46,471 nt of DNA from contig CAZKTF010000002.1 in assembly GCA_964555565.1 (NCBI GenBank), forward strand, positions 1 through 46,471, written 5' to 3'. This document shows positions 2,962-36,985 of the stretch, one piece after another; position 1 is the stretch's first letter; every line of letters begins with the position of its first letter. The notes under the pieces are model-generated. The model searched no databases. It worked only from the letters and a program-made list of their open reading frames with translations, and was not told where the DNA came from. The stretch comes from an uncultured Planctomycetota bacterium. GTDB taxonomy: Bacteria > Planctomycetota > JAJSAM01 > JAKLKS01. Made by a program: the position numbers and the translations under genes.

Positions 2962-3038
<77 letters not shown>

Positions 3039-4699: not shown

Positions 4700-4703
4700 C
4701 CAT

Positions 4704-7836: not shown

Positions 7837-7839
7837 CCG

Positions 7840-8057: not shown

Positions 8058-8163
8058 GGCCTCGGGCTTCCTCCGGGCCAGTTCCTCGCGCCTCGACTTG
8101 CCAGAGGCCACCAGGTTGCCGGCGTCCGGCAAGCAGCGGCTTCCCGGCAGGTCCCCGGTGGAC

Positions 8164-9738: not shown

Positions 9739-9937
9739 GGGTCGTCTCCCAGCTACGATGCCGTACCGCCAACGAGGGTACATCTCCCCGAGGACGCTCC
9801 CCGTGCCTGGAGAGAGTGGCAACGGATTGCGTTTCCACGGCCGGGCACGTCCGTCTAGAATGGTGGGCCTCTAACCTGAGCATCTGCTCCCCGCCCGACA
9901 TGGTGGCCTCCTAGTGGGGCCGCCCTCGGGCGGGGTT

Positions 9938-10534: not shown

Positions 10535-10546
10535 CAGCGGGGGCGA

Positions 10547-11332: not shown

Positions 11333-11343
11333 GGGGCCTCCGG

Positions 11344-11396
11344 TGTCAACTCTTGCGAAATATACCATACGGCGTTACTTTTGGGAAGAGTTGACA
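11344..11396 (-). promoter_or_regulatory. AT-rich promoter/operator with 11-bp inverted repeat
   Basis: tgtcaactctt (11344-11354) and aagagttgaca (11386-11396) are exact inverted repeats. On the minus strand they bracket TTCCCA-N17-TATATT (plus-strand 11382-11387 and 11359-11364). Confidence 0.45.
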
Positions 11397-11500
11397 TGGA
11401 ACTTTGAGGAGCCGCCGGGAGGCCCCCAGCCCCCCGGTGACACCGAGGGGGACGCGCCTCCCGGGCCCTCCTCGCGGCGCCCCCCCCACCGGCTCTACGG

Positions 11501-15298: not shown

Positions 15299-15456
15299 GT
15301 GTACGGGAGACCAGGAGGAGGCTTCGCTCGTCGTCCGCGGCGGGGGCCTCCCCGGGGCGACGCCCCGCCCGGTCGGGCGGGTCCGGGGGTTCCCTCCCCG
15401 GACGTCGGCGAAGTTTGCCGATCCCGAATCCCCCGCCGCCGCGGGATCATGCCGCC

Positions 15457-16845
15457 ATGGCGGAAACCCGCGAGACGCCCGGCCGCGGCCCGCCGGACGA
15501 TCCCGGCGAGCACCGCGTCGCCATCGCCCTTCGCGAGGCGCTTCCCACCAGGCGCCACGGGGAGATGCTCTTCGACATGGTCGCGGAGCAACTCGGTCCT
15601 GCGGCGCGGATCGAGGCCTCCCCCGACGGGAATCACAGGACCCTCTACCGGCTCGACGGCTCGGACCCCCGGTGGGTGATCCCCTCTCCCCTCCTGACCC
15701 TCGACCGGAATCCCCGGCAGATCCTCCACATGGAGATTCCGGGCCTCAAGCCTGTCCCCCCGCTGCCGCCACGGCCGGGGAAGGCGCCCAACCTCCGCGG
15801 GCTCGGCCCCGGCTCCATCCAGCTCCAGGACGGGGTCCGGTACGTCCAGGTGGCCTACGCGGAGGACGGCCGGTGGTTCGAGCAGTCCCGCGGCGGCCCC
15901 CCGTCAACGCTGGAGGGGGTCCTCCCGCTCCTCGCCGCCAGCGGCGGCCCCGCGGTGGAGCGGCTCGCGGAGTTCATGGTCGCCCTCGACGTGGCCCGCA
16001 ACGGGCCGCTCCGGGTGTTCCTGCCGAAGCCCGAGGCCTGGAACGCGTGGGCGGCGTGGCAGAGGGGACTCTCCTACCTCCGCCTGGCCGTCTCCCGGGG
16101 GGCGATCCCGCAGGCCGCCCGGTGGGTCGCCACCGACCCGGTGGACGGGACCGCGCTCGCCTGGGGAGCGACCCGGGACGAGGCGCTGTTCGCCTGGAGC
16201 GCCGAGGTCGAGAGGGTCCGGCCGGGCTCGTCCCCGCCCCCGCGCCCCGAGCACCCCTCCTTCGAGCCGCCCGGGGAACCCGAATTGCCGCCGCCGCCGG
16301 ACGAGGAGGGCGAGGGGAAGGGCCCCCGAGGTCCCCTCCACATCCGGTTCGGCGTCTCCTTCGGCGAGCCGGATCCCATGCTCCCCCAGCCGGCACCGAC
16401 TCCTCCGTCTCCGGGGGTCATCCCTTCGGTGCTGATCTCACTCGCGGACCTCCCGCCCGAACCAGCCCCCATCGGACAGTGGCGGCGTTTCCTCGGCGGA
16501 AGCGGCGCCACCGTGCCGGCGGCCTTCCGGGAGGATCCCGCCGGGTGGACCCTCGTCGGCGCTCCGGCACTTGCGGCGCTCGGGGCTCCCGACGCCGAGG
16601 CCGCCATGGACGTGGCGGATCGGGCCCACGAGGCGTGGCTGCGGGAGAAGAACGCGAGGGAGGACCCCGCGACCCCCAAGACCGCCTGGACCATCCGCCT
16701 CTTCCGCCTCCTGGACGAGTCCACGGGGAGCCCCTGCCCTCCCGTCACGAACCAGGCCCTGCTACAGGGGAACCGGGAGGTCCCCCTCTTCGACGGCGAC
16801 TTCCTCGCCTACGGTGCGGCGAGGCTCCGGCGGACGAAGACCTGA
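15457..16845 (+). CDS. Uncharacterised protein, family A (paralog 1)
   Basis: MAETRETPGRG...EHRVAIALREALPTRRHGEMLFDM... is collinear with 21415-22776 over its full length. I recognise no domain. Its stop TGA overlaps the next ATG (TGATG at 16843-16847). Confidence 0.7.
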   Translation: MAETRETPGRGPPDDPGEHRVAIALREALPTRRHGEMLFDMVAEQLGPAARIEASPDGNHRTLYRLDGSDPRWVIPSPLLTLDRNPRQILHMEIPGLKPVPPLPPRPGKAPNLRGLGPGSIQLQDGVRYVQVAYAEDGRWFEQSRGGPPSTLEGVLPLLAASGGPAVERLAEFMVALDVARNGPLRVFLPKPEAWNAWAAWQRGLSYLRLAVSRGAIPQAARWVATDPVDGTALAWGATRDEALFAWSAEVERVRPGSSPPPRPEHPSFEPPGEPELPPPPDEEGEGKGPRGPLHIRFGVSFGEPDPMLPQPAPTPPSPGVIPSVLISLADLPPEPAPIGQWRRFLGGSGATVPAAFREDPAGWTLVGAPALAALGAPDAEAAMDVADRAHEAWLREKNAREDPATPKTAWTIRLFRLLDESTGSPCPPVTNQALLQGNREVPLFDGDFLAYGAARLRRTKT

Positions 16846-17480
16846 TGCCCACCAGCCGCCACCCACGACGAGAGCCCGCGCCTCGGCGGTCGAGGAAGCC
16901 GCCTTCGGCGCGTAGACCGGGGCCCGTGTACCAGGTGCTCGTGACGCTGCGGGAAGTGCGCCCGGCGGTCTGGCGTCGCGTCCTGGTCCCTGGAGACATC
17001 ACCCTTGGGCGACTCCACCGCGTGCTCCAGGCGACCATGGGGTGGGAGGAGAGCCACCTGCACATGTTCCGGGTGCAGGGACGGAGGTTCAGCGACCCCA
17101 GGTTCCAACTCGACGACGACTGGGACGTGAAGGTGCACGATGAGGGCCGCATCACGCTCGAGGCGGCGACCGGCTCAGGGAAGCGGTCCATCGTGTACGA
17201 GCACGACTTCGGTGACCGCTGGCACCACGATCTCAAGGTCGAGCGGGTGCTCGCGCCGGCGGACGCGCCGGCAAAGGTGCCGGCCCTCGCCGCGGGGGAG
17301 CGGGCCTGTCCTCCCGAGGACATCGGCGGCGCGCCGGGCTACGAGGCGTTCCTCTGGGCCATGGCCCACCCGAACCACCGCGAACACGAGCACTACCGCG
17401 AGTGGATCGGCGGCGAGTTCGATCCGGAGCGGTTCGACCTCGAGGCGGCCGACCGCAAGGTCCGCACCCGGACCCGCTGA
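16845..17480 (+). CDS. PRiA4_ORF3 (plasmid pRiA4b ORF-3-like) domain protein
   Basis: VYQVLVTLREVRPAVWRRVLVPGDITLGRLHRVLQATMGWEESHLHMF...YEHDFGDRWHHDLKVERV...CPPEDIGGAPGYEAFL is the characteristic PF07929-type pattern. The ATG overlaps the upstream stop. Confidence 0.85.
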   Translation: MPTSRHPRREPAPRRSRKPPSARRPGPVYQVLVTLREVRPAVWRRVLVPGDITLGRLHRVLQATMGWEESHLHMFRVQGRRFSDPRFQLDDDWDVKVHDEGRITLEAATGSGKRSIVYEHDFGDRWHHDLKVERVLAPADAPAKVPALAAGERACPPEDIGGAPGYEAFLWAMAHPNHREHEHYREWIGGEFDPERFDLEAADRKVRTRTR

Positions 17481-17552
17481 GTTGGTCAAGCGGGCTTGAC
17501 TACCGCAGTGGGATGGTCAATGCCTCTTTACCAGCGAGCAGCGATTGGCGCG

Positions 17553-18143
17553 TCAGCGTCGGTCCCGCGGACGCACAACCGGCCTCCTCGACCTCCACTC
17601 AGGGTCCGCCTCTCCGGCGAAGAGCCCCGGCTGGTCGGTGCTGGGCTCAGCTTTCTCGGCAAGTCGCAGGTCCGCCTCGTTCTGAAGGCGCCCATCACTC
17701 CGAATGTGAAGGAGATCAACCCCCCGGGTCGCGAGAACCCTCCCTACCAGGAGCCGGCGATGGCACCCGGTGGGGTCCTCCTCGCTGCAGAGGATGGCGA
17801 CCCTGGACCGCTTCGCCTCCTCGACCAGACGCCGGACCCCCGCCAGGAACGATGCCCCCCCGGCGAGACGGCCGTAGAGGACATGCCCCTCGGAGTCGTA
17901 GTACTCGTCCCCCTCGGGCCGCCCCCCCAGCTCCTGCAGAAGGAACTCGTAGCGGATCCCGGCCTTGGCCAACGCCGCTTCCAGGGCCGGCCGGTTGAAG
18001 TGCGGCGAGGAGCGGGACCGCGGGACGGACCGGATGTCCGCGACGGCCTCCACGGTGTTGTCCCGCAGGAGGCCGAGGAACTTCGGGAGCGGGTGGTTGG
18101 AGTGCCCGATGGAGAACAGTCCCGGCCCTGTCGGAGTGGTCAT
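17553..18143 (-). CDS. DUF488-family protein
   Basis: LFSIGHSNHPLPKFLGLL...VADIRSVPRSRSSPHFN...GIRYEFL.ELGG...AILCSEEDPTGCHR matches the DUF488 signature. Confidence 0.85.
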   Translation of the reverse strand: MTTPTGPGLFSIGHSNHPLPKFLGLLRDNTVEAVADIRSVPRSRSSPHFNRPALEAALAKAGIRYEFLLQELGGRPEGDEYYDSEGHVLYGRLAGGASFLAGVRRLVEEAKRSRVAILCSEEDPTGCHRRLLVGRVLATRGVDLLHIRSDGRLQNEADLRLAEKAEPSTDQPGLFAGEADPEWRSRRPVVRPRDRR

Positions 18144-19027
18144 GGTGCGGGCTTCGTAGGAGTGGCCGCGGAGAGGAGGACGACGCGGCAGTCGGCGTTG
18201 AGGACCTGCGTTCCCCCCTTCAGAGTGATCAGGGGCTGACTCCAGTAGCAGTGCCCTCGCACCACGAGCACGGGTGGCCGCCGCTCCAGGATCTCCCGAA
18301 CCGCCGGGATGCCGAGGAGCCCCAGCGACGGGAAGTCAGGCCCATCATGGAGCGCGAGGATATCGACCCCGGAGTCGAGTACACGCTCGACCGCCGCGAG
18401 GTAGTCGGACTCGGTCATGCGGAAGAGCCGGGTCGGCTTGCCGATCACCCCGGAGACACCACCGATCCTCAGACCATCGAGGTCCACGGTTTCTCCGTCA
18501 AGGAAGTGCGCCCTGGGGACCCCCAAGAGGGGCCGACGCTCCGATCGGTGCGCATGCTCCCCGAAGACGTCGTGATTCCCTGCGACTCCGGCGACCCACC
18601 GGAACCGGTCAGCGATTGCCCGCCACACCTCGCGGACATCTCCGTGCGTCCCCCTCTTGGCAAGCTCGGGATGGGCGTACAGGTCCCCGCACAGGATCAC
18701 CCCCACGCGATCCGCAGGCGGGAGCCGCCCGTCACCGCACCATCCAGCCAGGGTCTCCGCGACCTGGCAACCGAGAAGGCGGAGGGAACCCTCAGCCCCG
18801 GGTCGCGGTGGCTCTCGCCCCTGGAGGTCGGAGGCGACCACCAGGGTCTCGACGCCTGGCGGGAGGGCATTCACGACACCGCGGAGGACCGAGAGGTGTC
18901 GCTCGACCGCGACTCCCCCCCTTCCGGCATCCAGGTACTGGATCCGGTCCCACGGCTCCATCTCAATGCCCGACAGGTAGATACGCACGATGTCTCCTGT
19001 ACCTCGGGCCCGGCGTTCCGGCGACAT
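18140..19027 (-). CDS. Calcineurin-like metallophosphoesterase
   Basis: LVVASDLQG..., ILCGDLY, VAGNHD and ALHDGP motifs appear in the expected order. The stop overlaps the DUF488 start (ATGA at 18140-18143). Confidence 0.75.
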   Translation of the reverse strand: MSPERRARGTGDIVRIYLSGIEMEPWDRIQYLDAGRGGVAVERHLSVLRGVVNALPPGVETLVVASDLQGREPPRPGAEGSLRLLGCQVAETLAGWCGDGRLPPADRVGVILCGDLYAHPELAKRGTHGDVREVWRAIADRFRWVAGVAGNHDVFGEHAHRSERRPLLGVPRAHFLDGETVDLDGLRIGGVSGVIGKPTRLFRMTESDYLAAVERVLDSGVDILALHDGPDFPSLGLLGIPAVREILERRPPVLVVRGHCYWSQPLITLKGGTQVLNADCRVVLLSAATPTKPAP

Positions 19028-19071
19028 GGACTCTGGGGGGCCCCATCATCTGACTTCACTAAACTATGGCA

Positions 19072-19100
19072 CTTGACAATACGGTCAAGTATCGTATTTT
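19072..19100 (+). promoter_or_regulatory. Near-consensus sigma-70-type promoter with interleaved palindromes; probably a leaderless transcript
   Basis: TTGACA (19073-19078), 16-nt spacer, TATTTT (19095-19100). ATG at 19109. CTTGAC/GTCAAG (19072-77/19084-89) and AATACG/CGTATT (19078-83/19093-98) are interleaved inverted repeats. Local AT-rich patch. Confidence 0.5.
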
Positions 19101-19108
19101 AGTAAAGC

Positions 19109-20170
19109 ATGGCCAGGCAGATCGACCGGATCGCGCAGCAGGAGGTGCCCCGCCTGCTGGGGATGCACCTCGGGCTCCCGGTACCGACGGGCTGGAAGGT
19201 GGGCCGGCACGACCAGGGCTTCGAGATGGTGCTGGTCGGGCCTCATGGGAGGTTCCTCATCGCGGTGAAGTCGGCCGGGTCCAGCAGCCACCTCCGGGCG
19301 GTCATCGCGAGGTTGAAGGAACAGCAGCGCCGGCACTCGAGCAAGGACATCCCTCTGCTGGTCGTCCCGTACATGGGGGACCAGGGTCGGGACATGTGCC
19401 GCGAGGCCGGGATCTCCTGGATGGACCTGTCCGGCAACGCGGAGATCCGGGCTGCGGACCTGGTCGTCAACATCCGGGGTCGCCCGAACGTCTACCCCTC
19501 TCGGGGGCGCCCGTCGAGCGCGTTCGCACCCAAGAGCGCCCGGATCACCCGCTTCCTCCTCCAGGATCCGAAGGTGCCCCGCAGCCAGCGCGAGATCGCC
19601 AGGGCCGTCTCCCTTGGCGAGGGCTACGTGAGCCGGATCGTCCGCCGGCTCGTGGAGGACCTGTTGCTCACGAAGGACGAGTCCGGCCGGGTGCTGGTAC
19701 CCGAGCCCGACCGCTTGCTGGACGCGTGGAGCGACGAGGAGGACTTCGCGCGCCACCGGACTCAGCGTGGGTTCGTGGCCGCAAAGTCCGGGCAGGAACT
19801 CATCGACCGGCTGAACGATGCCCTGGCGCCCTCGGGGGAACAGTACGCGTTCACCGGCCTCGCGGGGGCCTGGCTCTTGACCAGGTTCGCCACGTTCCGG
19901 ATGGCGACCGTGTTCGTCCTCGCGCCTCCCTCCCCCACCGTCCTCTCCAAGGCGCGGTTCCTCGACGAGCCGAAGGGGGCGAACTGCTGGCTGGTCGTGC
20001 CGCGCGACGAAGGCGTGTTCCATGGCGCAAGGTCTGTCCACGGCGTACCCTGCGCGAGCCCGGTCCAGGTCTACGTGGACCTGAAGGACCACCCGGAACG
20101 GGCGAAGGAAGCCGCCGAGGAGATCCGTCGCACCTCACTGCCTTGGAGGTCTCGTGGTTCCGAAGCCTAG
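19109..20170 (+). CDS. wHTH regulator, AbiEi_3-like antitoxin candidate
   Basis: Central MarR-like SQREIARAVSLGEGYVSRIVRRLVEDLLL. C-terminal ...ASPVQVYVDLKDHPERAKEAAEEIR resembles AbiEi_3-type antitoxins. It sits directly upstream of, and overlaps, a nucleotidyltransferase gene. Confidence 0.55.
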   Translation: MARQIDRIAQQEVPRLLGMHLGLPVPTGWKVGRHDQGFEMVLVGPHGRFLIAVKSAGSSSHLRAVIARLKEQQRRHSSKDIPLLVVPYMGDQGRDMCREAGISWMDLSGNAEIRAADLVVNIRGRPNVYPSRGRPSSAFAPKSARITRFLLQDPKVPRSQREIARAVSLGEGYVSRIVRRLVEDLLLTKDESGRVLVPEPDRLLDAWSDEEDFARHRTQRGFVAAKSGQELIDRLNDALAPSGEQYAFTGLAGAWLLTRFATFRMATVFVLAPPSPTVLSKARFLDEPKGANCWLVVPRDEGVFHGARSVHGVPCASPVQVYVDLKDHPERAKEAAEEIRRTSLPWRSRGSEA

Positions 20171-21017
20171 CCGTGCGAGCGAGTATCCGCCGGGCGCCCT
20201 GGACCGCGCGCGCCGCGCCTGTCTGCTCGTCGCGACCGTTCTGGGGGACCTCATGGACGAGATCGTGATCGTCGGGGGGCTCGTCCCCCACTTCCTCGTC
20301 GGCGATCGAGAAGGTGAGGGCGCGGAACCCTACGCGGGCACCCTGGACCTCGACATCGGACTCTCCCTCGGCCTCCTCGACGAGGAGAAGTACAAGGAGG
20401 TCGCCAGCCGGCTGGGGGGACAGGGGTTCAAGCCCGACAAGAACGACCAGGGCAGCCCGACCTTCCAGCGATGGACCATTGACGACCGCGACGGAGGGCG
20501 GGTCCTCGTGGACTTCCTCATGCCGCCGCCTCCCCGGACACCGGACAAGACCCGGGTCCACCACCTCGAGGCCGGCTTCGCGGCCGTCCTCATCCCCGGG
20601 CTCCACCTCGCCTTCCGTGACCGGGTGCGCGTCGTCCTCGATGGCCGGACGAGTCGCGATGAGGTCGCACGACGGGAGATCTGGGTCTGCGGGCCAGGGG
20701 CGTTCATCGTCCTGAAGGCACTCGCGTTCCGCATGCGGGGTGAGAACAAGGACGCCTATGACCTGTACTACGTCCTGCGGCACCTGCCGGCCGGACTGGC
20801 GGACATCCAGGCACGAATCACTCCCTTCCTGGAGGACCCCAAGACGCAGGAGGCCCTCGGGTACCTCCACGAGGACTTCGGGGCGCCCGATCGCACCGGA
20901 CCCAAGCGGGCGGCGGCCTTCCTCTTCGGCCGGGACGACGACACCGTCCAGGCGGATGTCTCCGGCTTTGCGAGGACCCTGGTCGAACGCCTCCGTGGTG
21001 GTGGTCCAGTAGCCTGA
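20154..21017 (+). CDS. Nucleotidyltransferase-fold protein, AbiEii/DUF1814-like toxin candidate
   Basis: IVIVGGLVPHFLV...GTLDLDIGL (the hG[GS]...DxD NTase motif) and KDAYDLYYVL. Start uncertain: GTG 20154 overlaps the upstream gene by 17 nt. Confidence 0.6.
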   Translation: MVPKPSRASEYPPGALDRARRACLLVATVLGDLMDEIVIVGGLVPHFLVGDREGEGAEPYAGTLDLDIGLSLGLLDEEKYKEVASRLGGQGFKPDKNDQGSPTFQRWTIDDRDGGRVLVDFLMPPPPRTPDKTRVHHLEAGFAAVLIPGLHLAFRDRVRVVLDGRTSRDEVARREIWVCGPGAFIVLKALAFRMRGENKDAYDLYYVLRHLPAGLADIQARITPFLEDPKTQEALGYLHEDFGAPDRTGPKRAAAFLFGRDDDTVQADVSGFARTLVERLRGGGPVA

Positions 21018-21211
21018 CGCAGGACCGGTGACGAGATGAGGGACACACTTCAGGGCCCCCCTCGTGACTCGCCCCAGGGCCCCCCCGGGGAGAAGTTCCA
21101 CGGCCGCCAAGGGCCCTCGTAGGCTGCGTCACACCTCCCGTGCAGTTCGGGAGATACGCACGCCGGGGCTCGACAGCGGTGTGACCCGGCGTGCGCCGCG
21201 TGCCTCGCAGC

Positions 21212-21288
<77 letters not shown>

Positions 21289-21414
21289 CCGTAACCCCGC
21301 TCAAACCCGCGTGTTCCGCGGACTTGGGGCGGAAGGGCGCCCCGGTGGCCCTGGGGTGCGAGGCGATGCATGCTGCAGAGCGCGATTCCGACGCCGCCGT
21401 GGGACGATTCCGGC

Positions 21415-22776
21415 ATGTCGGAAGCCGGAGAGACTCCCGTCCGCGGTCGAGCGGACGACGCCGATGAGCACCGCGTCGCCGTCGCGCTCCGCGGCGCGCT
21501 CGCCACGCGCCGCCACGGGGAGATGCTCTTCGACATGGCGGCGGACCTCCTCGGGCCGGCGGCCCGGGTGGAAGCCCCCGGCGACGGGACCTACCGGCGC
21601 CTGTTCCGGATCGAGGGGCCGGAGCCCCGGTGGGTCATCCCCTGGCCTCTCCTCACCCTCTCCCTGAAGGCTCCGGGGCACCTCGAGATGGAGATCCCGG
21701 GCCTCAAGCCGGCTCCGCCGCGGCTCCCCCGGCCGGGGAAGGCGCCGAACCTCCGGGGTCTCGGGCCGGGCTGGATCACGATCCACGACGGCACGCGCCA
21801 CCTCCAGGTGGGCTACGAGGAGGACGGTCGCTGGTGCGAGACCTGCCGGCACGGCCCCCCGGGGACCCTGGAGGGGCTCCTCCCGGTGCTGGCCGGCGGC
21901 GGCGCCCCGGCGGTGGAGCGCATCGCGGACTTCGTCGCCGGCCTCGACATCGCCCGCCACGGGCCCGCCAGGGCGTACCTCCCCGGCCCGGGAGGTTGCG
22001 ATGCCGCGGGAGCGTGGACCGGCGGTCTCTCCGCCATCCGCGAGGCGCTCGCGCGTGGGACGATCCCGGAGGGCGCCCGGTGGGTCGCCGCCGACGCCTT
22101 CGGAGGCCGGGCGCTGGCCTGGGGCGCGACCCGGGACGAGGCGCTGTTCGCCTGGAGCGCCGAGGTCGAGAGGGTCCGGCCGGGTCCTGGTCCTCCCATG
22201 GGAATGCCGGAGCCCGGACCGGACCTCCCCGACCCGCAGGAGCCCTGGAAGGGGGAGGACCCCCAGGGGGCCCCCGGCCTGGGGTTCGGAATCCACTTCC
22301 CGGGGCCGGTCCCCCTCGGCCCCGCGCCGCCGCCCCCCCCCCCGGAGTCCGTCCCCGGCGCGCTGGTCCCGCTCGGGGACCTCCCGGCCGGCCCCCCGCC
22401 GCTCGGGGAGTGGAGGCGCTTCCTCGGGGCATGCGGGAACACCGTGCCCGCGGCGGTCCGGGCCGATCCCCAGGGATGGACCGTCGTCGGGGATCGGGTC
22501 CTCGCGGCGCTCGGAATCCCCGACATCGAATCCGCGATGGACGAGGCCGATCGCGGGCACGAGATCCTGATGCGGAAGCATTCCCTGCGGCGGCCGCCGG
22601 GGATCCCGGAGCCGCCCTTCCGCGGGCGACACTACCGGCTCGTGGCCGAGACCAGCGGAACGCCCGTGGTCCCCCTCGTGGAGCTGTCCGGGGGGCTGCA
22701 GGAGTCGCGCATCCCGGCCGTGGACGGGGACTCGATCAGCAGCCGGGCAGTGCGCGTGCGGCCGGCGAACGGGTGA
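21415..22776 (+). CDS. Uncharacterised protein, family A (paralog 2)
   Basis: MSEAGETPVRG...EHRVAVALRGALATRRHGEMLFDM... is collinear with 15457-16845. The ATG lies 127 nt after tRNA-Asp copy 2. Contains a C11 run (22333-22343). Confidence 0.7.
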   Translation: MSEAGETPVRGRADDADEHRVAVALRGALATRRHGEMLFDMAADLLGPAARVEAPGDGTYRRLFRIEGPEPRWVIPWPLLTLSLKAPGHLEMEIPGLKPAPPRLPRPGKAPNLRGLGPGWITIHDGTRHLQVGYEEDGRWCETCRHGPPGTLEGLLPVLAGGGAPAVERIADFVAGLDIARHGPARAYLPGPGGCDAAGAWTGGLSAIREALARGTIPEGARWVAADAFGGRALAWGATRDEALFAWSAEVERVRPGPGPPMGMPEPGPDLPDPQEPWKGEDPQGAPGLGFGIHFPGPVPLGPAPPPPPPESVPGALVPLGDLPAGPPPLGEWRRFLGACGNTVPAAVRADPQGWTVVGDRVLAALGIPDIESAMDEADRGHEILMRKHSLRRPPGIPEPPFRGRHYRLVAETSGTPVVPLVELSGGLQESRIPAVDGDSISSRAVRVRPANG

Positions 22777-22800: not shown

Positions 22801-24693
22801 TCACGGGGCCGCCCCCGCCGGGGCCCCCCCCTCCGCCGGACGGACCGCCGGCGCCCGCCCCCGCGGCCGGACGTCCCCCATGTGCGTGAGGACCTCGACC
22901 ATGCGCTCGAGCGTCGGGCCGTCCCCGGGGCGGCCGAAGTTGCGGAGCACGATCTCCTTCGCGAAGAGGTGGACGAGGTAGCGCAGGCGACGGGACTCCT
23001 CCGCGGCCGCCTCCGCGTAGTCCCTGTGCGCGGTGTTGTACTCCCACGCGCCGTCGCGCAGCCGCGAACGCCAGGGTCCGCCGGGATCGTGGACCGGCAG
23101 CGGCTCGGGAATCCCCTCGGCGCCGGGGGCGGCCGCGGGGGAATCCACGACCAGGATCCGCGCCTCGGCCTCGGCCCGCACCTCGCCCTGGACGGCCCGG
23201 ACGAGGATGCGCGCCTCGACCGGCTCCTCGGGGGCCTCGTAGTCGGCCCGGTCGCCCCGCTCGCCCAGGATCCCGGGGCCGAGGAGGGTCCACGTGAACT
23301 CCACCGCACCGGCCGCGGGACGCCCGTCCGCGTCCAGCGCCGACGCGCGGAAGGTCCGCCGTCCCCCGGGCGGGAGGCGGACCAGGGAGGGCCGGATCCG
23401 CAGGGAGGCGAGGGGCCCCGGGGGGAACAGGGCGGGGCCCCCGGGGTGGGCGGCCTCCGGGAGGGGCTCCCCCTCCTCCCCGGGCGCGAGCGGTTCGCCG
23501 CCGGCGGCGGGCGGCGCCGCCCCGGGCGAACCCCCGTCCGCGGCCACGCGCCCCCCCGGCTCGCCGCGGCCCCGGATGTCGAACAGTTCGTACTCCGGGA
23601 GGAGACGCGCCATGGGGCGGAAGACGCGCCGGATCTCCCGGGCGAGGTTGCGGTCCTGCTCCTCCCCGCGGCGGTGGTCGTCCGCGGCGAGGGCGCCGGC
23701 GAGGGCGATCTCGAGCCCCCGGAGGGCGTCGAGGAACGCCAGCGCCGCACCGTCGTGGGCGAATCCCCGCCGCGTCCCCGGCGCGACGCTCAGTTCGGGG
23801 AAGTCCACGACGCCCTCCAGGCGCCCGGAATCCCAGGGGGCCCGCGACGTCCCCGACCCGTCGGCCCCGGCGACGTCGTCGAGCACCGTGGTCCCGCCGC
23901 AGGCCAGCGAGACCCTCCCCGGGTCGTCCTCGGGGTCGAGAAGGTAGACCTCGACGCGGGCGGGGTCGCGGCCGGGGACCGGCAGTTCCGCCAGTTCGCG
24001 CAGGAGCCGGCCGCGGAACCTCCGCGGGCGCACGGCGAACTCCTTCATGGAGCGGCCCCGGGCGACCCTGTCGTGGATGCGGACCGCCGCCGTGCGGGCG
24101 AGGAGCTGGCCGCGCAGTTCCGCGGCGAGGTAGGCGTGGAGGCGGCCGGGCCGGATCTGCCGCTCCGCCCCCTCGTGGACGCCGAGGATGGTCACCTCGG
24201 TGAAGGTGGCCGCTTCGTCCAGCCGCCGCGCGCGGGCGCGGCCGAGTTCGGCGTCGGGGGAATCCTCGTGAAGGCGGAGCGTCCAGGCCTCGGAGCCCGA
24301 CACGCGGCTCCGGATCTCCATGGTCCCGCCGACGGCCCAGAATCCCAGCAGGCCGATGCCGTACTGGCCCAGCGCCATCAGCCGCTGGCGCTCGGCGGGC
24401 GTGAGGGACCGCTTGTAGGAGTGGCCGATGGTGGTGGCGATGCGCCGGAGCGCCTCTTCGCGCAAGAGGTCGGGGAAGACGCCGCGCCCGTCGTCCCACA
24501 CGCGGAGCGCCCGGAGGCCCCTCTCGCTGAACCAGGTCAGATCGATCCTCGTGGCCTCCGCGTCGAGCGAGTTCTGGACCAGTTCCGCCACCGCCTTGCG
24601 CGGGTCATGCTGGCTGCGGGCGAGCAGCCGGATGAGGTCGAAGGGGTTCGCCGGCTTGAGCCGGATCCGGCGCGTCTGCGGGGCGCGGGGCAT
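22801..24693 (-). CDS. GHKL-superfamily (MORC/HATPase_c_3-like) ATPase
   Basis: Bergerat-fold motifs in order: ELVQNSLDA (N box), VWDDGRGV (G1), LGQYGIGLLGFW (G2). No HisKA domain and no TM helix. 630 aa. Confidence 0.8.
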   Translation of the reverse strand: MPRAPQTRRIRLKPANPFDLIRLLARSQHDPRKAVAELVQNSLDAEATRIDLTWFSERGLRALRVWDDGRGVFPDLLREEALRRIATTIGHSYKRSLTPAERQRLMALGQYGIGLLGFWAVGGTMEIRSRVSGSEAWTLRLHEDSPDAELGRARARRLDEAATFTEVTILGVHEGAERQIRPGRLHAYLAAELRGQLLARTAAVRIHDRVARGRSMKEFAVRPRRFRGRLLRELAELPVPGRDPARVEVYLLDPEDDPGRVSLACGGTTVLDDVAGADGSGTSRAPWDSGRLEGVVDFPELSVAPGTRRGFAHDGAALAFLDALRGLEIALAGALAADDHRRGEEQDRNLAREIRRVFRPMARLLPEYELFDIRGRGEPGGRVAADGGSPGAAPPAAGGEPLAPGEEGEPLPEAAHPGGPALFPPGPLASLRIRPSLVRLPPGGRRTFRASALDADGRPAAGAVEFTWTLLGPGILGERGDRADYEAPEEPVEARILVRAVQGEVRAEAEARILVVDSPAAAPGAEGIPEPLPVHDPGGPWRSRLRDGAWEYNTAHRDYAEAAAEESRRLRYLVHLFAKEIVLRNFGRPGDGPTLERMVEVLTHMGDVRPRGRAPAVRPAEGGAPAGAAP

Positions 24694-24844
24694 GGGTGGA
24701 TCCTACTTTCCCCCGCCCGCCGGGATTCCGCAAGGCCCGTCGCCGCCAGGTCGGCCGGGCCCCATCCGAGTGCTTCCGGAAGGACCCGGTCGGGTCTAGA
24801 TTCCCCTCCGGGTCGATCCACATCCGGACGAGGGAGGCTGCACG

Positions 24845-27532
24845 ATGATCACGACGGGTCTTCTCGATGGATTCCTCGGCGACGTGGGCGGCCAGGCGCT
24901 CCGCGAGGGGACCCGCTACGCGCGGGAGGCGAGGGTCGGGGACCTCGTCGGATCGACAGAGCGCGTCTCCACGGTCGTTCGCGGCCGCTCGGGCGACTTC
25001 GAGGTCGTCCTCTGGGCCGAGGCGGGGAAGCTCGCGCACCGCTGCAGCTGCCCCTCCTGGCGGGATCCCTGCAAGCACGAGGTCGCGGCGGCACTCGTCC
25101 TGAAGCAATCCGCCCGGCGCAAGGATGCCGCGGGTCCCCGCCTGCCCGCGGACACCGACGAGCCACGGCGCCGCGCCGTCGAGGAGAGGGTCGTGGCCGC
25201 GCGGCGCGAGGCCCTCCGGTTCCGTCCGGACCGCGTCCCGTTCCTGACGGGTTCGAGCGCCTCCGGGTTCGTCTACCGGGTGCACCTCCGCGGGAGTGCC
25301 GACGGCCCCCACTCCTGCGACTGTCCCGACTTCGAGGCGAACCGGCTCCACACCTGCAAGCACGTGGAGAGGGTTCGGGGGCAACTCCGGCGGGCGCCCG
25401 GCCTGCCCGCGGCCCACCGGCACGCCGCGTCTCGACCCCGCGTCTACCTCCACTTCGGCGAGATCGTCGAGCCCCGGCTCTTCGGAACGCCCGCGGGCCC
25501 CGGCTCCCGGGCCGTCCTGGGTGCCTTCGACCCCGGGGGCCGGGTCCTACGGCCGCTGGCCCGGGGGGAGGGCGAACTGAAGGCCTGGCTGACGGGGCTG
25601 GGGGAGTGGGTGGAGCCCGAGGCCATCGAGTGGCTGGACCGTAGGATCGCCGCGCGCCCCGTGCTTCCCATGGTCCGGGAATTCTCCCGACTGGTGCCGG
25701 GGTTGCGAGGCAGCCCCTACGACTACCAATGGGAAGGCGCCGCGTTCCTCGCGCGGGCGGGCCGCGGCCTGCTCGCGGACGAGATGGGCCTCGGCAAGAC
25801 GGTGCAGGCCATCGTCGCTGCAGTGGCGTTGCGGCGGGCGACCCCGGCCGTCGGCCGGGTGACCGTCGTGTGCCCCGCCAGCCTCCGCGGAGGCTGGCGC
25901 GAGGAGATCTTCCGCTGGCTCGGCGAGGAGCCGGTGCTCCTCGAGGGGGGCGCCCGGGCACGCGCCGGAGCGATCGCCGCCGGGGCTCCGTGGCTCGTGA
26001 CCCACTACGAGCAACTCCTCAAGGACCACCGCGAACACGCCGCGAGTCCGCCGGACCTCCTGATTATCGACGAGGCCCAGAGGGCCAAGGGGCTCAACAC
26101 CCGCACGGCCCGGGTGCTGAAGTCCATCGGGGCGCGCTTCCTCTTCGCCCTCACGGGGACCCCGCTGGAGAACCGCCTGGAGGAGGCCTACGCCATCGCG
26201 CAGCTCGTGGACCAGCGGCTCCTGCCGCCGCTGTGGCAGATCGACCGCGACCACTTCGTCCGGGAAGGAAAGGGCAAGCGGGTGGTCCTGTACCGCAACC
26301 TCGACGCCCTGCGCGCGCGCCTGGCCCCCGCCTTCCTGCGGCGGCGGAAGGAGGATGTCGCGATGGACCTGCCCGAGCGCGTCCGATCCACCGTGATGGT
26401 CCCGATGCACCCGGCCGTAGGGCCCACCTACGAGGACGTGATGGCCCAGGTGGCCATCCTCGCGAGCAGGAGAGTCCTCCTTCCCGCCGACCTCGACCGC
26501 ATGCAGCGGCTCCTGGTCATCGCCCGGCGCTGCTGCAACGGGCCGCACATGCTCGGGATCGAGGCGGAGGACGCGGCCGTCCCGAAGCTCGCCGAGCTGG
26601 AGGAGGTCCTCAGGGACCTCTGCATCGGGGAGGGGCGGAAGGCGGTGGTGTTCTCCGAGTGGACCGACATGACCGGGCGGGTCGAGAGGATGTGCGACCG
26701 CCTGGGACTGCCGGTGTTCCACCTGCGGGGGAGCGTCCCTGTTCGTGCGCGCCCGGCGTTGATCCAGGCCTTCCGCGAGTCCCCCGGGGCTGCGGTGTTC
26801 GTCTCCACGGACGCCGGGGGCCTCGGGCTCAACCTGCAGGTCGCCGACGTGCTCGTGAACCTGGACCTCCCCTGGAACCCGGCGCGCCTCGAGCAGCGCG
26901 CGGCGCGCGTCCACCGCATCGGTTCGAAGGGGACCGTGCAGGAGATCCTCCTCGTGGCGAAGGACTCGATCGAGGAGAGGATCCTCCGGCTCCACGACAC
27001 GAAGAAGGACGTCCTGGAGAACGTCTGGGTGCGGACCGGGAAGGACGAGATCGCCGCTCCGGGCGGAAGCGGCGCGTTCCGCGAGATGGTGCAGGCGCTC
27101 CTCAGCACCCGCGCGCCGCGGGTCGAGGAGGGCCTGCTCGTCGCCGAGGGCGCTCCGTCACCGGCGCGGGCCGGGGGTGCGGCCGGTCCCGCGGGATCGA
27201 CGGCAGGGCCGCGCCCCGCGGCGCCGGCACCCCCCCGCGTGCCCGCAGCGGCCGCGGTCACGCCGGGATCGCCTCCTGCCCCGGCTCCGGCCCGTCCGCA
27301 GGCGGCATGGCAGGTGGACCCCTCCGCGCTGGCCTTCGCCATGTCCGCCGTGGCCCCGACGCTCCCCCCGGATCACCGCCGCTCGCTCTCGGCGGTCTTC
27401 CGGGCCATGGCCGATGCCCTCGAGGCGTCTCCGGGGGCGCAGTCCACGACCGCGGCGCCCTCCTCGCGCAGACCAGAGCCGGAGAACAACCCTACGCGCC
27501 GTACCCGCAGAGACCCGTGCGGGGTGAATTGA
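24845..27532 (+). CDS. SNF2-family helicase with two N-terminal SWIM zinc fingers
   Basis: SWIM motifs CSCPSWRDPCKH and CDCPDFEANRLHTCKH. SNF2 motifs LADEMGLGKT, IIDEAQRAKG, ALTGTPLENR, LGLNLQVADVLVNLDLPWNPARLEQRAARVHRIGS. Pro/Ala-rich tail. Confidence 0.9.
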   Translation: MITTGLLDGFLGDVGGQALREGTRYAREARVGDLVGSTERVSTVVRGRSGDFEVVLWAEAGKLAHRCSCPSWRDPCKHEVAAALVLKQSARRKDAAGPRLPADTDEPRRRAVEERVVAARREALRFRPDRVPFLTGSSASGFVYRVHLRGSADGPHSCDCPDFEANRLHTCKHVERVRGQLRRAPGLPAAHRHAASRPRVYLHFGEIVEPRLFGTPAGPGSRAVLGAFDPGGRVLRPLARGEGELKAWLTGLGEWVEPEAIEWLDRRIAARPVLPMVREFSRLVPGLRGSPYDYQWEGAAFLARAGRGLLADEMGLGKTVQAIVAAVALRRATPAVGRVTVVCPASLRGGWREEIFRWLGEEPVLLEGGARARAGAIAAGAPWLVTHYEQLLKDHREHAASPPDLLIIDEAQRAKGLNTRTARVLKSIGARFLFALTGTPLENRLEEAYAIAQLVDQRLLPPLWQIDRDHFVREGKGKRVVLYRNLDALRARLAPAFLRRRKEDVAMDLPERVRSTVMVPMHPAVGPTYEDVMAQVAILASRRVLLPADLDRMQRLLVIARRCCNGPHMLGIEAEDAAVPKLAELEEVLRDLCIGEGRKAVVFSEWTDMTGRVERMCDRLGLPVFHLRGSVPVRARPALIQAFRESPGAAVFVSTDAGGLGLNLQVADVLVNLDLPWNPARLEQRAARVHRIGSKGTVQEILLVAKDSIEERILRLHDTKKDVLENVWVRTGKDEIAAPGGSGAFREMVQALLSTRAPRVEEGLLVAEGAPSPARAGGAAGPAGSTAGPRPAAPAPPRVPAAAAVTPGSPPAPAPARPQAAWQVDPSALAFAMSAVAPTLPPDHRRSLSAVFRAMADALEASPGAQSTTAAPSSRRPEPENNPTRRTRRDPCGVN

Positions 27533-27869: not shown

Positions 27870-29186
27870 CTACGTCGGCGCGGCCCGCCGGAGGAGCGGC
27901 GTGATCCGGAGGTAGGTCGCGGCGCGCCAGACCCACTCGACGGGACCCACGCGGAAGGCGCGGAGCCAGAGGACGCTCGCGACGACCTGGGCCAGGCCAA
28001 CGGCGAGGGCGAGGAAGAGGAGGGTCCCCCTGCCGACGGACGCGAACAGGCCCAGCCCCGCCCCGAGGAACACGGTGGTCCCCTGGAACAGGAGGGCCAT
28101 GACCGCCGACTGGGCCAGGTAGTTGGTGAACGCCATCCGGCCGGCCGCCGCCAGGGCCCGCAGCCAGGGATGCCCGGGGGCCGCGGCGCAGGCCCGCGCG
28201 AGGAGCGCCGCGTAGGCCCCGGCGAGCCCGAGGCTCCCGAGGTAGTGCGCGATCTCCCCTCCCACGGCCGCGGCCGGGTCGCGGGGGGCGATCCCCTGGA
28301 GGAGGATGGCCGCCGCGGTGAGCGGGACTCCCGCCCCGGCGCCCCACGCGAGGAGGCGGCGGAACCGCCGCGCGCCCTCCGCAGAGGCCGGGGCGAGGAA
28401 CCACCCCTCACCGGTCCACGCCATGCCGAGGAGGAACAGCCCCGCGAGCCGGGGGGCCCAGTAGGGGCCCGACACGAGCCAGGAGAGGGCCCAGGTGAAG
28501 CCGCGGAGGGCGGTCGCCTGCGCGAAGGAGCCCTCGCGGACCACGGCGATCTCGAAGTCGGGGTCGAACTCGAGCAGCTGCCTCCCGAAACCACCCCCGG
28601 GTCCCGCCTGCCAACCCGGGTCCACGCCGTCGGGGAAGGTCGGGGCGAGCCATCCCGACACGACCTGGGAGATCCCCCCCACGTCGGCGAGGAGGGCGGC
28701 GAGGAGGAGGACGAGGAGCGCCACGGGCAGGGCGAGGAGCGCCGCGCCCAGCGCACGCAGCAGCCGCGGCGGGAGCCCCGGCGCCCAGCAGAGCGCGAGG
28801 CCGAGGAGGGCGTACACCGCGGCGATGTCGCCGTACCAGAGGAGGACCCCGTGGGCGCACCCCAGGACCCACAGGAAGCCGAGCCGCCGGGCCGCCAGCG
28901 GGCCCCACCGCGCTCCCCGCTCCCGCGTCCGCGCGCGGAGGAGGGCCATCCCCGCGCCGAACAGCAGCGCGAAGAGGGTGTGGAACTTGTACTCGAACAG
29001 CGCGCGGACCCCGAGGTCCGCCGCCGCGTCCGCGGCCCCGGCCCCGGGGGGGAACGCGGGGTCCCCGGCGACCGTCACGGGGTAGGCGAAGAAGGCCGCG
29101 TTCACGGGCAGGATGCTCAGGATCGCGACGCCCCGCAGCACGTCGAGGTACTCGATGCGCCCGCCCCGGTCCTCGTCCACCCCCAT
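27870..29186 (-). CDS. DUF418/YeiB-like membrane protein
   Basis: RIEYLDVLRGVAILSILPVN at the N-terminus, multiple TM helices, and C-terminal FRVGPVEWVWRAATY. I prefer ATG 29186 to the TTG at 29267. Confidence 0.75.
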   Translation of the reverse strand: MGVDEDRGGRIEYLDVLRGVAILSILPVNAAFFAYPVTVAGDPAFPPGAGAADAAADLGVRALFEYKFHTLFALLFGAGMALLRARTRERGARWGPLAARRLGFLWVLGCAHGVLLWYGDIAAVYALLGLALCWAPGLPPRLLRALGAALLALPVALLVLLLAALLADVGGISQVVSGWLAPTFPDGVDPGWQAGPGGGFGRQLLEFDPDFEIAVVREGSFAQATALRGFTWALSWLVSGPYWAPRLAGLFLLGMAWTGEGWFLAPASAEGARRFRRLLAWGAGAGVPLTAAAILLQGIAPRDPAAAVGGEIAHYLGSLGLAGAYAALLARACAAAPGHPWLRALAAAGRMAFTNYLAQSAVMALLFQGTTVFLGAGLGLFASVGRGTLLFLALAVGLAQVVASVLWLRAFRVGPVEWVWRAATYLRITPLLRRAAPT

Positions 29187-29298
29187 GGCGCCCGCGATTG
29201 GACCACGGGACGGACCGGACCCGCAGCCCCCGGCTTCGGGGAATGGGCGCCCGCGCGCACGAGGCAAGCCTCGCTACCGGGGCCTTGTGAGGCATGTC

Positions 29299-30945: not shown

Positions 30946-32454
30946 CTACCGCACGAGGCCGACCTCTCCCCAGAGGCCGCCGAAGTCCACCCCGACGAGG
31001 TCGGCCGCGGGCCCCAGTTCCCGTTCCAGTTCCTTGAGCATGGCCTCGGCGCAGGAGCGCCTCTCCGGGTCCCGGGCGAGGTCGCGCAGGCTCCTCCCGT
31101 CCAGTTCCTCGTGTGCGGCGTCGAACAGGGCGCGGACCTGCGCCTCGATCCCCCCCCGGAGCCTCCGCGCCTCCTCCTGCGGCAGGATCTCGGCGAGGGC
31201 GGGGCCGGCCTCCGCCAGCATCCTCCCGGTGTCGGGCCGCATCCGCTCGCGGAACCGGACGAGGCCCGTGGCGGCGCGTTCGACCTTGCGCCGGAGGGAG
31301 TTGGCGCGGGTGACGCCGTCCGATTCGACGGCCAACAGCCCGTGGCCGACGAAGACGCGGCCGAGGGAGCCCTCTCCCCCCGGCCTCCCGATCTCCAGGA
31401 ACCTCGTCTCCCGGAGCTCCGTCACCGGGCCCGCCCCGTCGATGCGGCGGATGCTCGCGAGGACGCTCTCCTCCCGGGATGGCTCGTACTCGAACTCGTC
31501 CAGGACCACTCTCCCCCGGTCACGGCGGCGCTGGTTCTCGGGCCGATCGTGCATCGCCTCCTGGAGGGCCTCCTCCTCCCAGACGGCGAGGAGGCATTCG
31601 AAGCAGGGCGGTGCCCCTTCCCCGGGCTCCCGTCCCCGGCCGCAGTCGGAGTGGCCCCCGCCTCCGATCTCCTCCACGACGAAGCTCCCCCTCAGGGGCC
31701 CCAGGGCCGCCCTGTGGTGCCCCCCCATCACGGTGATCCCGCCCCCGTCCACGACCTGGGCGAAGAGCACGTCCCAGCGCTTCAGGTTCTCCGACCCGAT
31801 CTCCTCGGTCACCCGGAAGCGCGTCCCGGCGAGGAGGTCCCGGGCCTCGAACCCCTTCCCCGGGTCCCGGTCGAGGACTTCAAGGACGGTGAACCGCGAA
31901 GCGGCGGCGGCCTCGAGCCAGGAGCGGTCGTCCGGCCCGAGGTCCGCCCCCCGTTCCTCCAGGTACCAGGCCGCCGGACTCTTCCCGTCCACCTGGCAAC
32001 CGTAGATCATCCAGGGGACCACGATGGTGGAGAGCGACGGTGCCACGTCCGGATCCCAGCCCAGGTCGTCCTCCGGGCGGTAGGCCTTCCCGAAGCGGCC
32101 CGTGGCCCAGCGGAGGATCGCGGGCGCGAGCCGCGCCTCGGCGGCCGAGAACCGGCGGGCCGCCGCCGCCTCCGGGGTGGGCGGCTCGGCGGGGAGCGGG
32201 GACATCTCGCAGCGGAACTCCTGCCTCCAAGAGACGTCCACCCCGTCCCCGTCGAAGTCCTCCGGCGCCGCGATGGACTCCTCGAGCTCGTCGCTGTCCG
32301 GGAGGGGCCCGGGTCCGTCCTCCCCCGACCCCGTCTCCAGGGCGCCGCCCCCGACCAGCGTGAGCTTCGCCGGGCCGAGCCCGTCCGGGTGGCACTTCTT
32401 CGACTTCCTCCCGCTCCCGCAGGGGCAGGGGTCGTTGCGGCCGAGGGATGCCAT
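30946..32454 (-). CDS. N-terminal SEC-C-motif protein, uncharacterised family (paralog 2)
   Basis: ATG 32454 follows GGAGG. MASLGRNDPCPCGSGRKSKKCH. Collinear with 8164-9738 through to ...LDGRSLRDLARDPERRSCAEAMLKELERE. Confidence 0.75.
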   Translation of the reverse strand: MASLGRNDPCPCGSGRKSKKCHPDGLGPAKLTLVGGGALETGSGEDGPGPLPDSDELEESIAAPEDFDGDGVDVSWRQEFRCEMSPLPAEPPTPEAAAARRFSAAEARLAPAILRWATGRFGKAYRPEDDLGWDPDVAPSLSTIVVPWMIYGCQVDGKSPAAWYLEERGADLGPDDRSWLEAAAASRFTVLEVLDRDPGKGFEARDLLAGTRFRVTEEIGSENLKRWDVLFAQVVDGGGITVMGGHHRAALGPLRGSFVVEEIGGGGHSDCGRGREPGEGAPPCFECLLAVWEEEALQEAMHDRPENQRRRDRGRVVLDEFEYEPSREESVLASIRRIDGAGPVTELRETRFLEIGRPGGEGSLGRVFVGHGLLAVESDGVTRANSLRRKVERAATGLVRFRERMRPDTGRMLAEAGPALAEILPQEEARRLRGGIEAQVRALFDAAHEELDGRSLRDLARDPERRSCAEAMLKELERELGPAADLVGVDFGGLWGEVGLVR

Positions 32455-36889: not shown

Positions 36890-36985
36890 GCGGCGGATCG
36901 TACCCGGCCCGCGTGCGGTGGCCTACCGGCACCGTGTACAATCCTCCCGGGCGATGGGACCCAGCCGGGGCCGGGAGGAGGGCGG

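Follow-up and report, generated by a model that had tools for sequence, protein, structure and literature searches.

A divergent pair of ATPase genes, one encoding a GHKL ATPase and the other a SNF2 helicase/translocase with two SWIM zinc fingers, is found on a complete contig of 46,471 bp (about 73% GC) from a metagenome-assembled genome (MAG) of the Planctomycetota; this whole stretch is called the window below. With moderate confidence, we regard the two as separately distributed chromosomal genes for DNA ATPases, which are neighbours here and, if partners at all, facultative ones. Members of either family are usually found without the other, and the adjacency of GHKL and SWIM-SNF2 genes recurs beyond chance. 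Since each gene is mostly alone in other genomes, they can be at most occasional partners and not an obligate unit. Furthermore, since no nuclease or methylase is conserved as a partner, the pair does not by itself make up a restriction-like or defence system, and any role that it has in conflict would be accessory and context-specific.

The GHKL gene (22801-24693, minus strand) encodes 630 residues and the SNF2 gene (24845-27532, plus strand) 895 residues. Their GC contents at third codon positions (0.95 and 0.91, respectively) support both as coding and set them apart from many spurious open reading frames (ORFs). The two genes are separated by a gap of 151 bp. The catalytic motifs of both proteins are intact, and these motifs are invariant in both families.

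Distribution and linkage of the two families

The GHKL protein belongs to an uncharacterised family of about 600 residues, which is conserved over its full length and spread over at least six phyla. A total of 955 homologues of the full-length type were found at E<=1e-5, with relatives in 225 GTDB species, and a profile search of 1.84 billion representatives returned 308 clusters at E<=1e-30. Near-full-length relatives are 50-63% identical within the Planctomycetota and 43-47% identical in Myxococcota, Acidobacteriota, Binatia, Eisenbacteria and Gemmatimonadota. The named closest relatives are labelled as Planctomycetota MAGs, and the family includes a protein of Saltatorellus ferox Poly30 (L047), the one cultured carrier that was found. 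Members are found on contigs of 8.1, 3.8, 2.6 and 1.0 Mb, and one record is titled chromosome. Neither 72,556 plasmids nor 2.9 million viral contigs contain the family; carriage by mobile elements was rejected, there being no plasmid or IMG/VR match.

The neighbourhoods of this family were sampled in 83 loci from other genomes (81 distinct), with flanks of up to 10 kb. A SNF2 homologue stands beside the GHKL gene in two of them only, designated L018 and L027. Clustering of all long neighbouring ORFs revealed no conserved partner, as no cluster was present in more than nine of the 83 loci; the commonest were ABC ATPases (nine loci), S9/DPP-IV-type peptidases (six), histidine kinases (six) and DUF4143 proteins (five). 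No cluster of nucleases or methylases is common to these loci. Instead, the GHKL gene elsewhere has ordinary chromosomal neighbours, such as histidine kinases and metabolic genes, with a lineage-level synteny that involves a DPP-IV peptidase and an amino-acid permease. The preliminary description of the window had suggested joint action with the DUF4143 ATPase encoded downstream; this link is weak, with window-like copies in three of the 83 loci, any DUF4143 gene in about five, and DUF4143 being a multi-copy family.

On the other side, the SNF2 protein has 3304 homologues at E<=1e-20, the closest of which are 55-70% identical and come from several phyla. The labelled ones belong mainly to Acidobacteriota/Polarisedimenticolia, 'Deltaproteobacteria', Verrucomicrobiae and Rhodospirillales, with few Planctomycetota. 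Among the 120 closest relatives, no cluster is recorded on a contig of more than 230 kb. When the 120 best matches of the GHKL protein are compared with the 120 best of the SNF2 protein, the window is the sole contig in common. In a sample of ten loci of close SNF2 relatives with a readable upstream flank (the window included), a GHKL gene is the neighbour in three, namely the window, L084 and L088 (two of nine without the window), and is missing from the other seven (L085, L086, L087, L090, L168, L169 and L170). In L087 and L170, one protein of which is labelled Polarisedimenticolia, the SNF2 gene follows kdsB-pyrG-kdsD and precedes a DAHP_synth_1 (kdsA-like) gene; in this position it seems to be a stable gene of the chromosome, with a small insertion hotspot next to it. 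L170 also carries HEPN/nucleotidyltransferase genes, a PIN gene and an AAA_21/DUF4276 pair.

The four other linked loci show three arrangements. In L084 the two genes are divergent, as in the window, with a gap of 220 bp. In L088 the GHKL gene precedes the SNF2 gene in tandem at a distance of 75 bp. In L018 and L027 the order is likewise GHKL and then SWIM-SNF2 in tandem, with an overlap of 4 bp. Such a 4-bp overlap is typical of translational coupling. The window proteins are 36% (GHKL) and 66% (SNF2) identical to those of L084, 44% and 70% identical to those of L088, and 55% and 41% identical to those of L018; this discordant divergence does not fit with a simple co-inheritance of one ancestral pair.

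Pure coincidence, that is, a neighbourhood of genes with unrelated functions, for example a horizontally acquired SNF2 gene inserted beside a native GHKL gene in a recombination-prone region next to a tRNA hotspot, is in our view somewhat unlikely. The closest GHKL relatives are Planctomycetota while few of the closest SNF2 relatives are, and these differing phyla suggest different histories. Coincidence also agrees with the uniqueness of the pair to the window in the top-120 match lists, with the lack of a conserved GHKL neighbour and with a spacer that is unlike that of L084. It is less easily reconciled with four further adjacent pairs in which different GHKL and SNF2 clades are mixed, nor does it agree with the binomial expectation on the SNF2 side: if a rate of 4e-4 per locus is assumed, at least two GHKL-adjacent loci out of nine SNF2 loci have a p of about 6e-6, and with ten times that rate p is still about 6e-4. 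Moreover, the translationally coupled operon of L018 and L027 has ordinary, non-island surroundings (FG-GAP proteins, a Na+/H+ antiporter and a dehydrogenase), so that crowding in defence islands is insufficient as an explanation of the adjacency.

The preliminary description took the pair for a candidate novel two-gene system and had set co-occurrence outside this genome beforehand as the test that could refute it. The adjacency does recur, in L018, L027, L084 and L088, but only two of the 83 GHKL loci and three of the ten close-SNF2 loci are linked; the system hypothesis is thus largely, though not wholly, refuted.

Several stronger forms of linkage were considered and rejected. A fusion of GHKL and helicase of the Rosetta-stone type does not occur among the 150 best GHKL profile matches: full-length members of the GHKL type have about 510-670 residues, and the few very long matches cover the Ig-like region alone. 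An apparently long GHKL protein in L040, derived from a tblastn span, is an ordinary ORF of 619 residues, and another, P0114, is an ORF over-called at its N-terminus. A GHKL sub-clade that is always linked to SNF2 was likewise rejected: L171 and L172 harbour close relatives of the L084 GHKL gene without SNF2, and the match lists have only contig 71155 in common.

In L027 a 347-residue protein (8735-9778, plus strand), with a weak ParB_N-like match (24 bits, slightly below the cut-off), is encoded upstream of the GHKL-SNF2 operon and ends 16 bp before it. It could be a third member of the operon in that lineage.

The spacer between the two window genes is as follows:

24694..24844, no strand: intergenic region of 151 bp between the divergent genes, presumably with both promoters inside

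The element GAGGGAGG is located 8 nt ahead of the SNF2 start codon (ATG) in this spacer. The spacer contains no match to the sigma-70 consensus, and in comparison with the equivalent spacer of L084 nothing is conserved apart from the ribosome-binding site. A shared operator in the divergent spacer was rejected on these two grounds.

Architecture of the two proteins and their relation to known systems

The features that the preliminary description had read from the two translations hold. The GHKL protein carries all Bergerat-fold motifs (ELVQNSLDA, VWDDGRGV and LGQYGIGLLGFW), as is evident from the translation, from the Pfam match to HATPase_c_3 (4e-12, residues 32-140; 46.7 bits against a cut-off of 25) and from the invariant columns of an alignment. 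Apart from a weak HATPase_c match Pfam detects nothing else, and in particular no HisKA dimerisation domain. No 19-residue window reaches transmembrane-strength hydrophobicity in either the GHKL or the SNF2 protein. ELVQNSLDA, DDGRG and GQYGIGLLGFW are invariant across 21 relatives. With motifs I (ExxxNxxD), II (DxGxG) and III (the GxxGxG lid) in this order, together with the fold matches, the protein belongs to the GHKL (Bergerat-fold) superfamily. A full AlphaFold2 model built from the 21 relatives has a mean predicted local distance difference test score (pLDDT) of 75, and of more than 85 in the folded parts. The parts of the protein, all on the minus strand, are listed from the N-terminus:

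24169..24606, minus strand: Bergerat-fold ATP-binding domain, about residues 30-175 (translation, 21-sequence alignment, AlphaFold2)
23794..24156, minus strand: S5-fold transducer-like domain, about residues 180-300 (Foldseek; limits read from the AlphaFold2 model)
23602..23751, minus strand: single long helix, residues 315-364 (AlphaFold2 secondary structure, pLDDT)
23149..23406, minus strand: Ig-like (Big_2-type) beta-sandwich, about residues 430-515 (AlphaFold2 pLDDT 95-98; Foldseek; weak LigB sequence match)
22873..23103, minus strand: conserved C-terminal module, residues 531-607 (invariant alignment columns; beta-hairpins and three helices in AlphaFold2)

In the Bergerat domain the invariant residues are E37 and N41 (motif I), D67-G71 (DDGxG) and G109-W119 (the GxYGIGLLGFW lid), and the pLDDT is 85-94 except in the lid; in the S5 region it is 75-92. 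In the PDB, Foldseek finds alignments of 340-430 columns with Hsp90 N+M, MutL LN40, SMCHD1, MORC2/3 and GyrB-43K, all with E about 1e-9, in agreement with the MutL/MORC-type likeness that had been proposed. This alignment extends beyond the GHKL domain of about 150 residues, so that the first two domains correspond to the GHKL-S5 engine of these clamps; in the predicted model, an S5-fold transducer follows the GHKL domain directly, as in the GHKL-S5 class. The long helix, to judge from the model, may have a coiled-coil or dimerisation role. It is followed by a disordered Pro/Gly/Ala linker (residues 372-420) that varies in length and sequence among the aligned relatives.

The beta-rich region and helical tail of the preliminary description correspond in AlphaFold2 to the Ig-like domain and to the hairpin-plus-three-helix module. 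The Ig-like domain matches Sap S-layer, Rib and Big domains in Foldseek. The C-terminal module has the motifs GIPEP..WRSR..W.FN..H.DY..RRLRYL..LFAKE.VL.NFG..LERMVEVLT, and its invariant columns in the 21-sequence alignment are W541-R544, N553, H556, D558, K579, E580 and N585. A separate AlphaFold2 model of the C-terminal half (residues 425-612) reached a pLDDT of 86, and Foldseek of this model against the PDB gave targets of the Ig-like type only, hence no fold match for the module itself. A hidden nuclease in the C-terminus was rejected on this basis, and no recognisable nuclease fold was detected by Foldseek with either the full or the C-terminal model.

The SNF2 protein agrees equally well with the preliminary reading of two SWIM fingers fused to a complete core, divergent from the GHKL gene at 151 bp. 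Pfam recognizes two SWIM stretches, SNF2-rel_dom (6e-31; 108 bits) and Helicase_C (1e-20; 74 bits), the latter two both over their cut-offs, and GLGKT and DEAQ are invariant; it is therefore a member of the SNF2 family. Its parts are as follows:

24998..25102, plus strand: SWIM zinc finger 1, residues 52-86 (CxC...CxH: C67, C69, C76, H78; best Pfam stretch, invariant C/H columns)
25292..25384, plus strand: SWIM zinc finger 2, about residues 150-180 (C158, C160, C171, H173; Pfam, invariant columns)
25724..26923, plus strand: SNF2 ATPase core, with N-lobe 294-568 (GLGKT K318; DEAQ 409-412) and Helicase_C 585-693 (Pfam, invariant motifs)
27308..27427, plus strand: conserved C-terminal peptide, about residues 822-861, after a low-complexity Pro/Ala linker (SNF2 alignment)

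The second SWIM finger is retained in the distant helicases of L018 and L027. In the PDB, the core gives profile matches to ISWI, a Sulfolobus Rad54-like protein, CHD1 and Snf2 (E about 1e-50 to 1e-55). The C-terminal peptide (VDP.AL..A..AVAPTLP..HRRSL..VFRA.A.ALE), with near-invariant columns A832, P838, L840, P841, R845, S847-A849, V851, R853, A856 and L859, is a candidate docking helix for some partner.

The preliminary description had presented the combination as a candidate undescribed conflict system. The theme of GHKL plus SWI2/SNF2 is, however, already present in the work of Iyer, Abhiman and Aravind (2008; PMC2292703), which was the only relevant result of a literature search on SWIM-SNF2 and GHKL systems, the rest being unrelated (ARMADA II has a RapA-like SNF2 and no GHKL protein). 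In that work, a SWI2/SNF2 helicase accompanies MORC in operon type 2, and a nuclease of the HNH or EcoRII-like kind is often present as well. About 70% of prokaryotic MORC/paraMORC neighbourhoods have a superfamily II helicase, plus a nuclease and/or a DNA methylase, and paraMORC1-5 have C-terminal extensions such as a restriction-endonuclease (RE) fold or TIR. The cooperation of a GHKL clamp with a helicase, as in MutL-UvrD, is an established concept that is also discussed there.

The window GHKL protein resembles MORC/paraMORC in its intact motifs followed by an S5-type transducer (its best Pfam match being HATPase_c_3), in the occasional position of its family beside a SWI2/SNF2 helicase, and in the presence of HNH_2 near the L084-type relatives. 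In contrast to MORC/paraMORC, helicase linkage amounts to 2/83 (about 2%) versus about 70%, there is no conserved methylase or nuclease partner, the surroundings are mostly ordinary chromosomal ones, and the C-terminal half consists of a long helix, an Ig-like domain and an orphan module, rather than an RE fold or TIR according to Foldseek. The family does not have the gene context of MORC/paraMORC, and is set apart by this context and by its C-terminal half.

Similarly, the likeness to MutL is confined to the engine. Foldseek aligns about 350 columns of the window protein to LN40 (TM-score 0.5 on the target), and the nearest solved relative by sequence is the MutL N-terminus, in the motif I region only (E=4e-7). 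The NCBIfam MutL models, however, score 19-35 bits against cut-offs of 180-840; the best, TIGR00585, reaches 35 bits against 180 over residues 31-84 only, and no MutL C-terminal domain was matched. The dimerisation/endonuclease domain at the C-terminus of MutL is replaced by the Ig-like domain and the orphan module, and the neighbouring helicase is of the SNF2 type, not of the UvrD type. Membership of Hsp90/HtpG is equally unsupported (NF010683, 29 bits against 455), the structural likeness being to the N+M engine only (TM-score about 0.35).

As for the SNF2 protein, SWIM finger(s) ahead of a complete SNF2 core are shared with the stand-alone SWIM-SNF2 helicases and RapA, and its clade, like the stand-alone helicases, is usually solitary in the chromosome. 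Its best NCBIfam matches are the SCO1167/SCO6262 and pilus-expression-regulating Snf2 families (199-205 bits over the ATPase core), far under the equivalog cut-offs of 1100-1200 (SCO1167, 199 against 1200; RapA, 64 against 576), and the two SWIM fingers with the family-specific C-terminal peptide distinguish it further. The hidden Markov models of PADLOC for DpdE, ZorD, DrmD and BrxHI match its core at 1e-61 to 1e-27. This likeness to DISARM DrmD, Zorya ZorD, Dpd DpdE and BREX BrxHI is one of the generic helicase core only, since the NCBIfam equivalog scores (DrmD 95.6 against 610, ZorD 126.8 against 1500, DpdE 105.8 against 500) stay below the cut-offs and no DrmA/B/MI, ZorABC, DpdA-type or BREX-type partners are among the window ORFs scanned; assignment to DISARM, Zorya or Dpd is therefore not supported. 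Unlike the named defence SNF2 proteins, it has no Mrr-type or other nuclease fusion in Pfam. PADLOC gave no meaningful system-level match for the GHKL protein. Thus, as had been anticipated, the pair matches no named system, PADLOC and NCBIfam giving generic core matches below the cut-offs.

The surroundings of the pair

The immediate neighbours of the pair are an ORF of 468 residues without a family match (21370-22776), next to the GHKL gene, and a gene for a DUF418 membrane protein (27870-29267), next to the SNF2 gene. In a domain scan of these neighbours, no nuclease or methylase directly adjoins the pair, as already stated in the preliminary description; an HNH_2 gene (35894-36889, minus strand) and a PLD gene resembling DrmC/MkoB (36740-37765, plus strand) are 8-10 kb downstream. 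As called, the 5' ends of these two overlap by about 150 bp, so one of the start codons is probably wrong. HNH_2 genes also adjoin the L084-type GHKL gene in L084 and L172.

The same description had made the pair the lead cargo of a tRNA island. This did not stand: the tRNA-Asp copies bracket the upstream region from 3.0 to 21.3 kb, and the pair is just outside, downstream of it. ARAGORN detects full tRNA-Asp(GTC) copies at 2962-3038 and 21212-21288, which differ by a compensatory acceptor-stem pair, and a 28-nt 3' remnant is present at 5814-5841.

21212..21288, plus strand: second full tRNA-Asp(GTC) (ARAGORN); right-hand end of the bracketed island, with the pair beginning 1.5 kb beyond

The bracket looks like two tandem insertions. 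The first (3039-5841) contains an ISL3 transposase (3548-4699) and a truncated SoFic. The second (5842-21211) contains a SEC-C protein, an NYN/HEC-09 protein, AbiEi, DUF488/PDC-M45B, a metallophosphoesterase, a kinase-AAA_16-TPR STAND protein of 1265 residues (PD-T4-6-like) and a weakly matching AbiEi_2/AbiEii-like pair. No integrase domain is present among the window ORFs scanned, and no direct tRNA-Asp repeat was found downstream of the pair; all direct repeats are upstream, so that the pair does not stand between a tRNA gene and its 3' repeat as island cargo would. The only tRNA-Asp-like match downstream is a 16-mer at 38013-38028 (minus strand), T-arm/acceptor-like with two mismatches, a little beyond the PLD-like gene. 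With 0.19 such matches expected in the window, it may be accidental, or else a relic of another insertion. An island boundary downstream of the pair was rejected, this weak 16-mer on the opposite strand being the only match.

Downstream of the pair, the DUF418 gene is accompanied by the DUF4143/PDC-S01 ATPase, a SEC-C-motif protein and the HNH_2 and PLD genes. Defence-type genes are thus numerous in the wider region, both inside the bracket and downstream. This part of the proposed defence setting is retained, whereas a conserved nuclease or methylase partner is lacking. It seems distinctly unlikely that the pair is a discrete, undescribed two-ATPase conflict system (anti-phage, anti-plasmid or for element maintenance), carried as island cargo and with its effector in the GHKL C-terminal module or in nearby nucleases acting in trans. 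For such a system speak the SoFic fragment, AbiEi, the PD-T4-6-like STAND kinase, PDC-M45B, PDC-S01/DUF4143, HNH and the DrmC/MkoB-like PLD gene of the window, to which other genomes add the L084 pair, which adjoins Fic and HNH_2 genes, the L084-type GHKL genes of L171 and L172 beside type I restriction-modification genes and HNH_2, and close SNF2 relatives among SIR2-HerA genes and toxin-antitoxin clusters in L085 and L086. The resemblance of the SNF2 core to those of DpdE, ZorD and DrmD and the recurrence of the adjacency point in the same direction, but the partner is missing from about 97% of the GHKL loci and from 70% of the close-SNF2 loci, and the position of the pair outside the tRNA-Asp-bracketed segment disagrees with island cargo. 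Most GHKL relatives have ordinary chromosomal neighbours, with synteny at the level of lineages, and none was found in the plasmid and viral collections; the sequence evolves slowly, with conservation from end to end of the protein (43-62% identity across phyla). Furthermore, no nuclease fold was detected in the GHKL protein, PADLOC has no system-level match for it, and the NCBIfam scores are far below every cut-off.

A few further observations concern these neighbourhoods. In L086 (1-7300), the close SNF2 relative is found by a defence cluster with an AAA_13 ATPase, DUF932, a SIR2_2-HerA pair and a PDDEXK/RNase_H_2 protein. The two SEC-C proteins of the window, one inside the tRNA-Asp bracket (8164-9822, minus strand; 552 residues) and one downstream of the SNF2 gene (30946-32454, minus strand; 502 residues), show no recognisable feature other than a SEC-C zinc motif at the N-terminus. 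The AT skew of the segment 28001-29000 (+0.43) is far higher than elsewhere in the window; as the DUF418 gene is represented here by its antisense strand, this is probably an effect of codon composition (hydrophobic codons with T at the second position).

A possible partnership of clamp and translocase

The domain composition suggests how the two proteins would act where their genes are linked. The GHKL protein would be a GHKL-S5-class clamp whose dimerisation depends on ATP, with an engine as in MutL, MORC, Hsp90 and GyrB-N, and the SNF2 protein would be a SWIM-finger translocase on double-strand DNA. By analogy, the GHKL dimer could close on DNA or on a DNA-bound complex, after which the SNF2 motor could translocate or remodel the clamped complex, in a way comparable to MutL-UvrD and to the MORC-SWI2/SNF2 operons (PMC2292703). 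In the window, both genes may be co-regulated from the divergent spacer.

It could even be imagined that GHKL-S5-Ig and SWIM-SNF2 proteins form an unrecognised, facultative two-motor machine without a nuclease, in which an ATP-gated clamp loads, or is driven by, a double-strand-DNA translocase on chromosomal or invading DNA. Such a machine would be a bacterial counterpart of MORC/SMCHD1 with SNF2 remodellers, mostly encoded in trans, with the linked loci as its exposed tip; the SNF2 C-terminal peptide might then dock with the Ig/C-terminal module of the GHKL protein. We consider this improbable as it stands.

The reading of two separately distributed genes that are at most facultative partners has its own weak points. 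The linked loci known are five, and as L018 and L027 are close relatives, these two represent one event. The defence-gene-rich setting of the window and of L084 could inflate the adjacency, through shared variable regions. A physical or genetic interaction of GHKL and SNF2 is putative. As the counts refer to linked genes only, adjacency may understate the pairing, if this is obligatory in trans, or may overstate its meaning. Finally, the mechanism is drawn by analogy with other GHKL-S5 and SNF2 proteins, and the C-terminal module of the GHKL protein has no recognisable fold.

The practical result is mostly a negative one: adjacency in one contig is no ground for entering this locus among new defence systems. 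What remains of most interest is the orphan GHKL-S5-Ig family, together with its sporadic coupling to SWIM-SNF2 motors. If the partnership is real, it would mean that bacteria combine a MORC/MutL-like clamp with a SNF2 remodeller without any nuclease, which would bear on the origin of the eukaryotic MORC/SMCHD1-SNF2 silencing machinery. In that case it would also offer a first starting point for working out the function of two large orphan families, the GHKL-S5-Ig proteins of about 600 residues and the common bacterial SWIM-SNF2 helicases.

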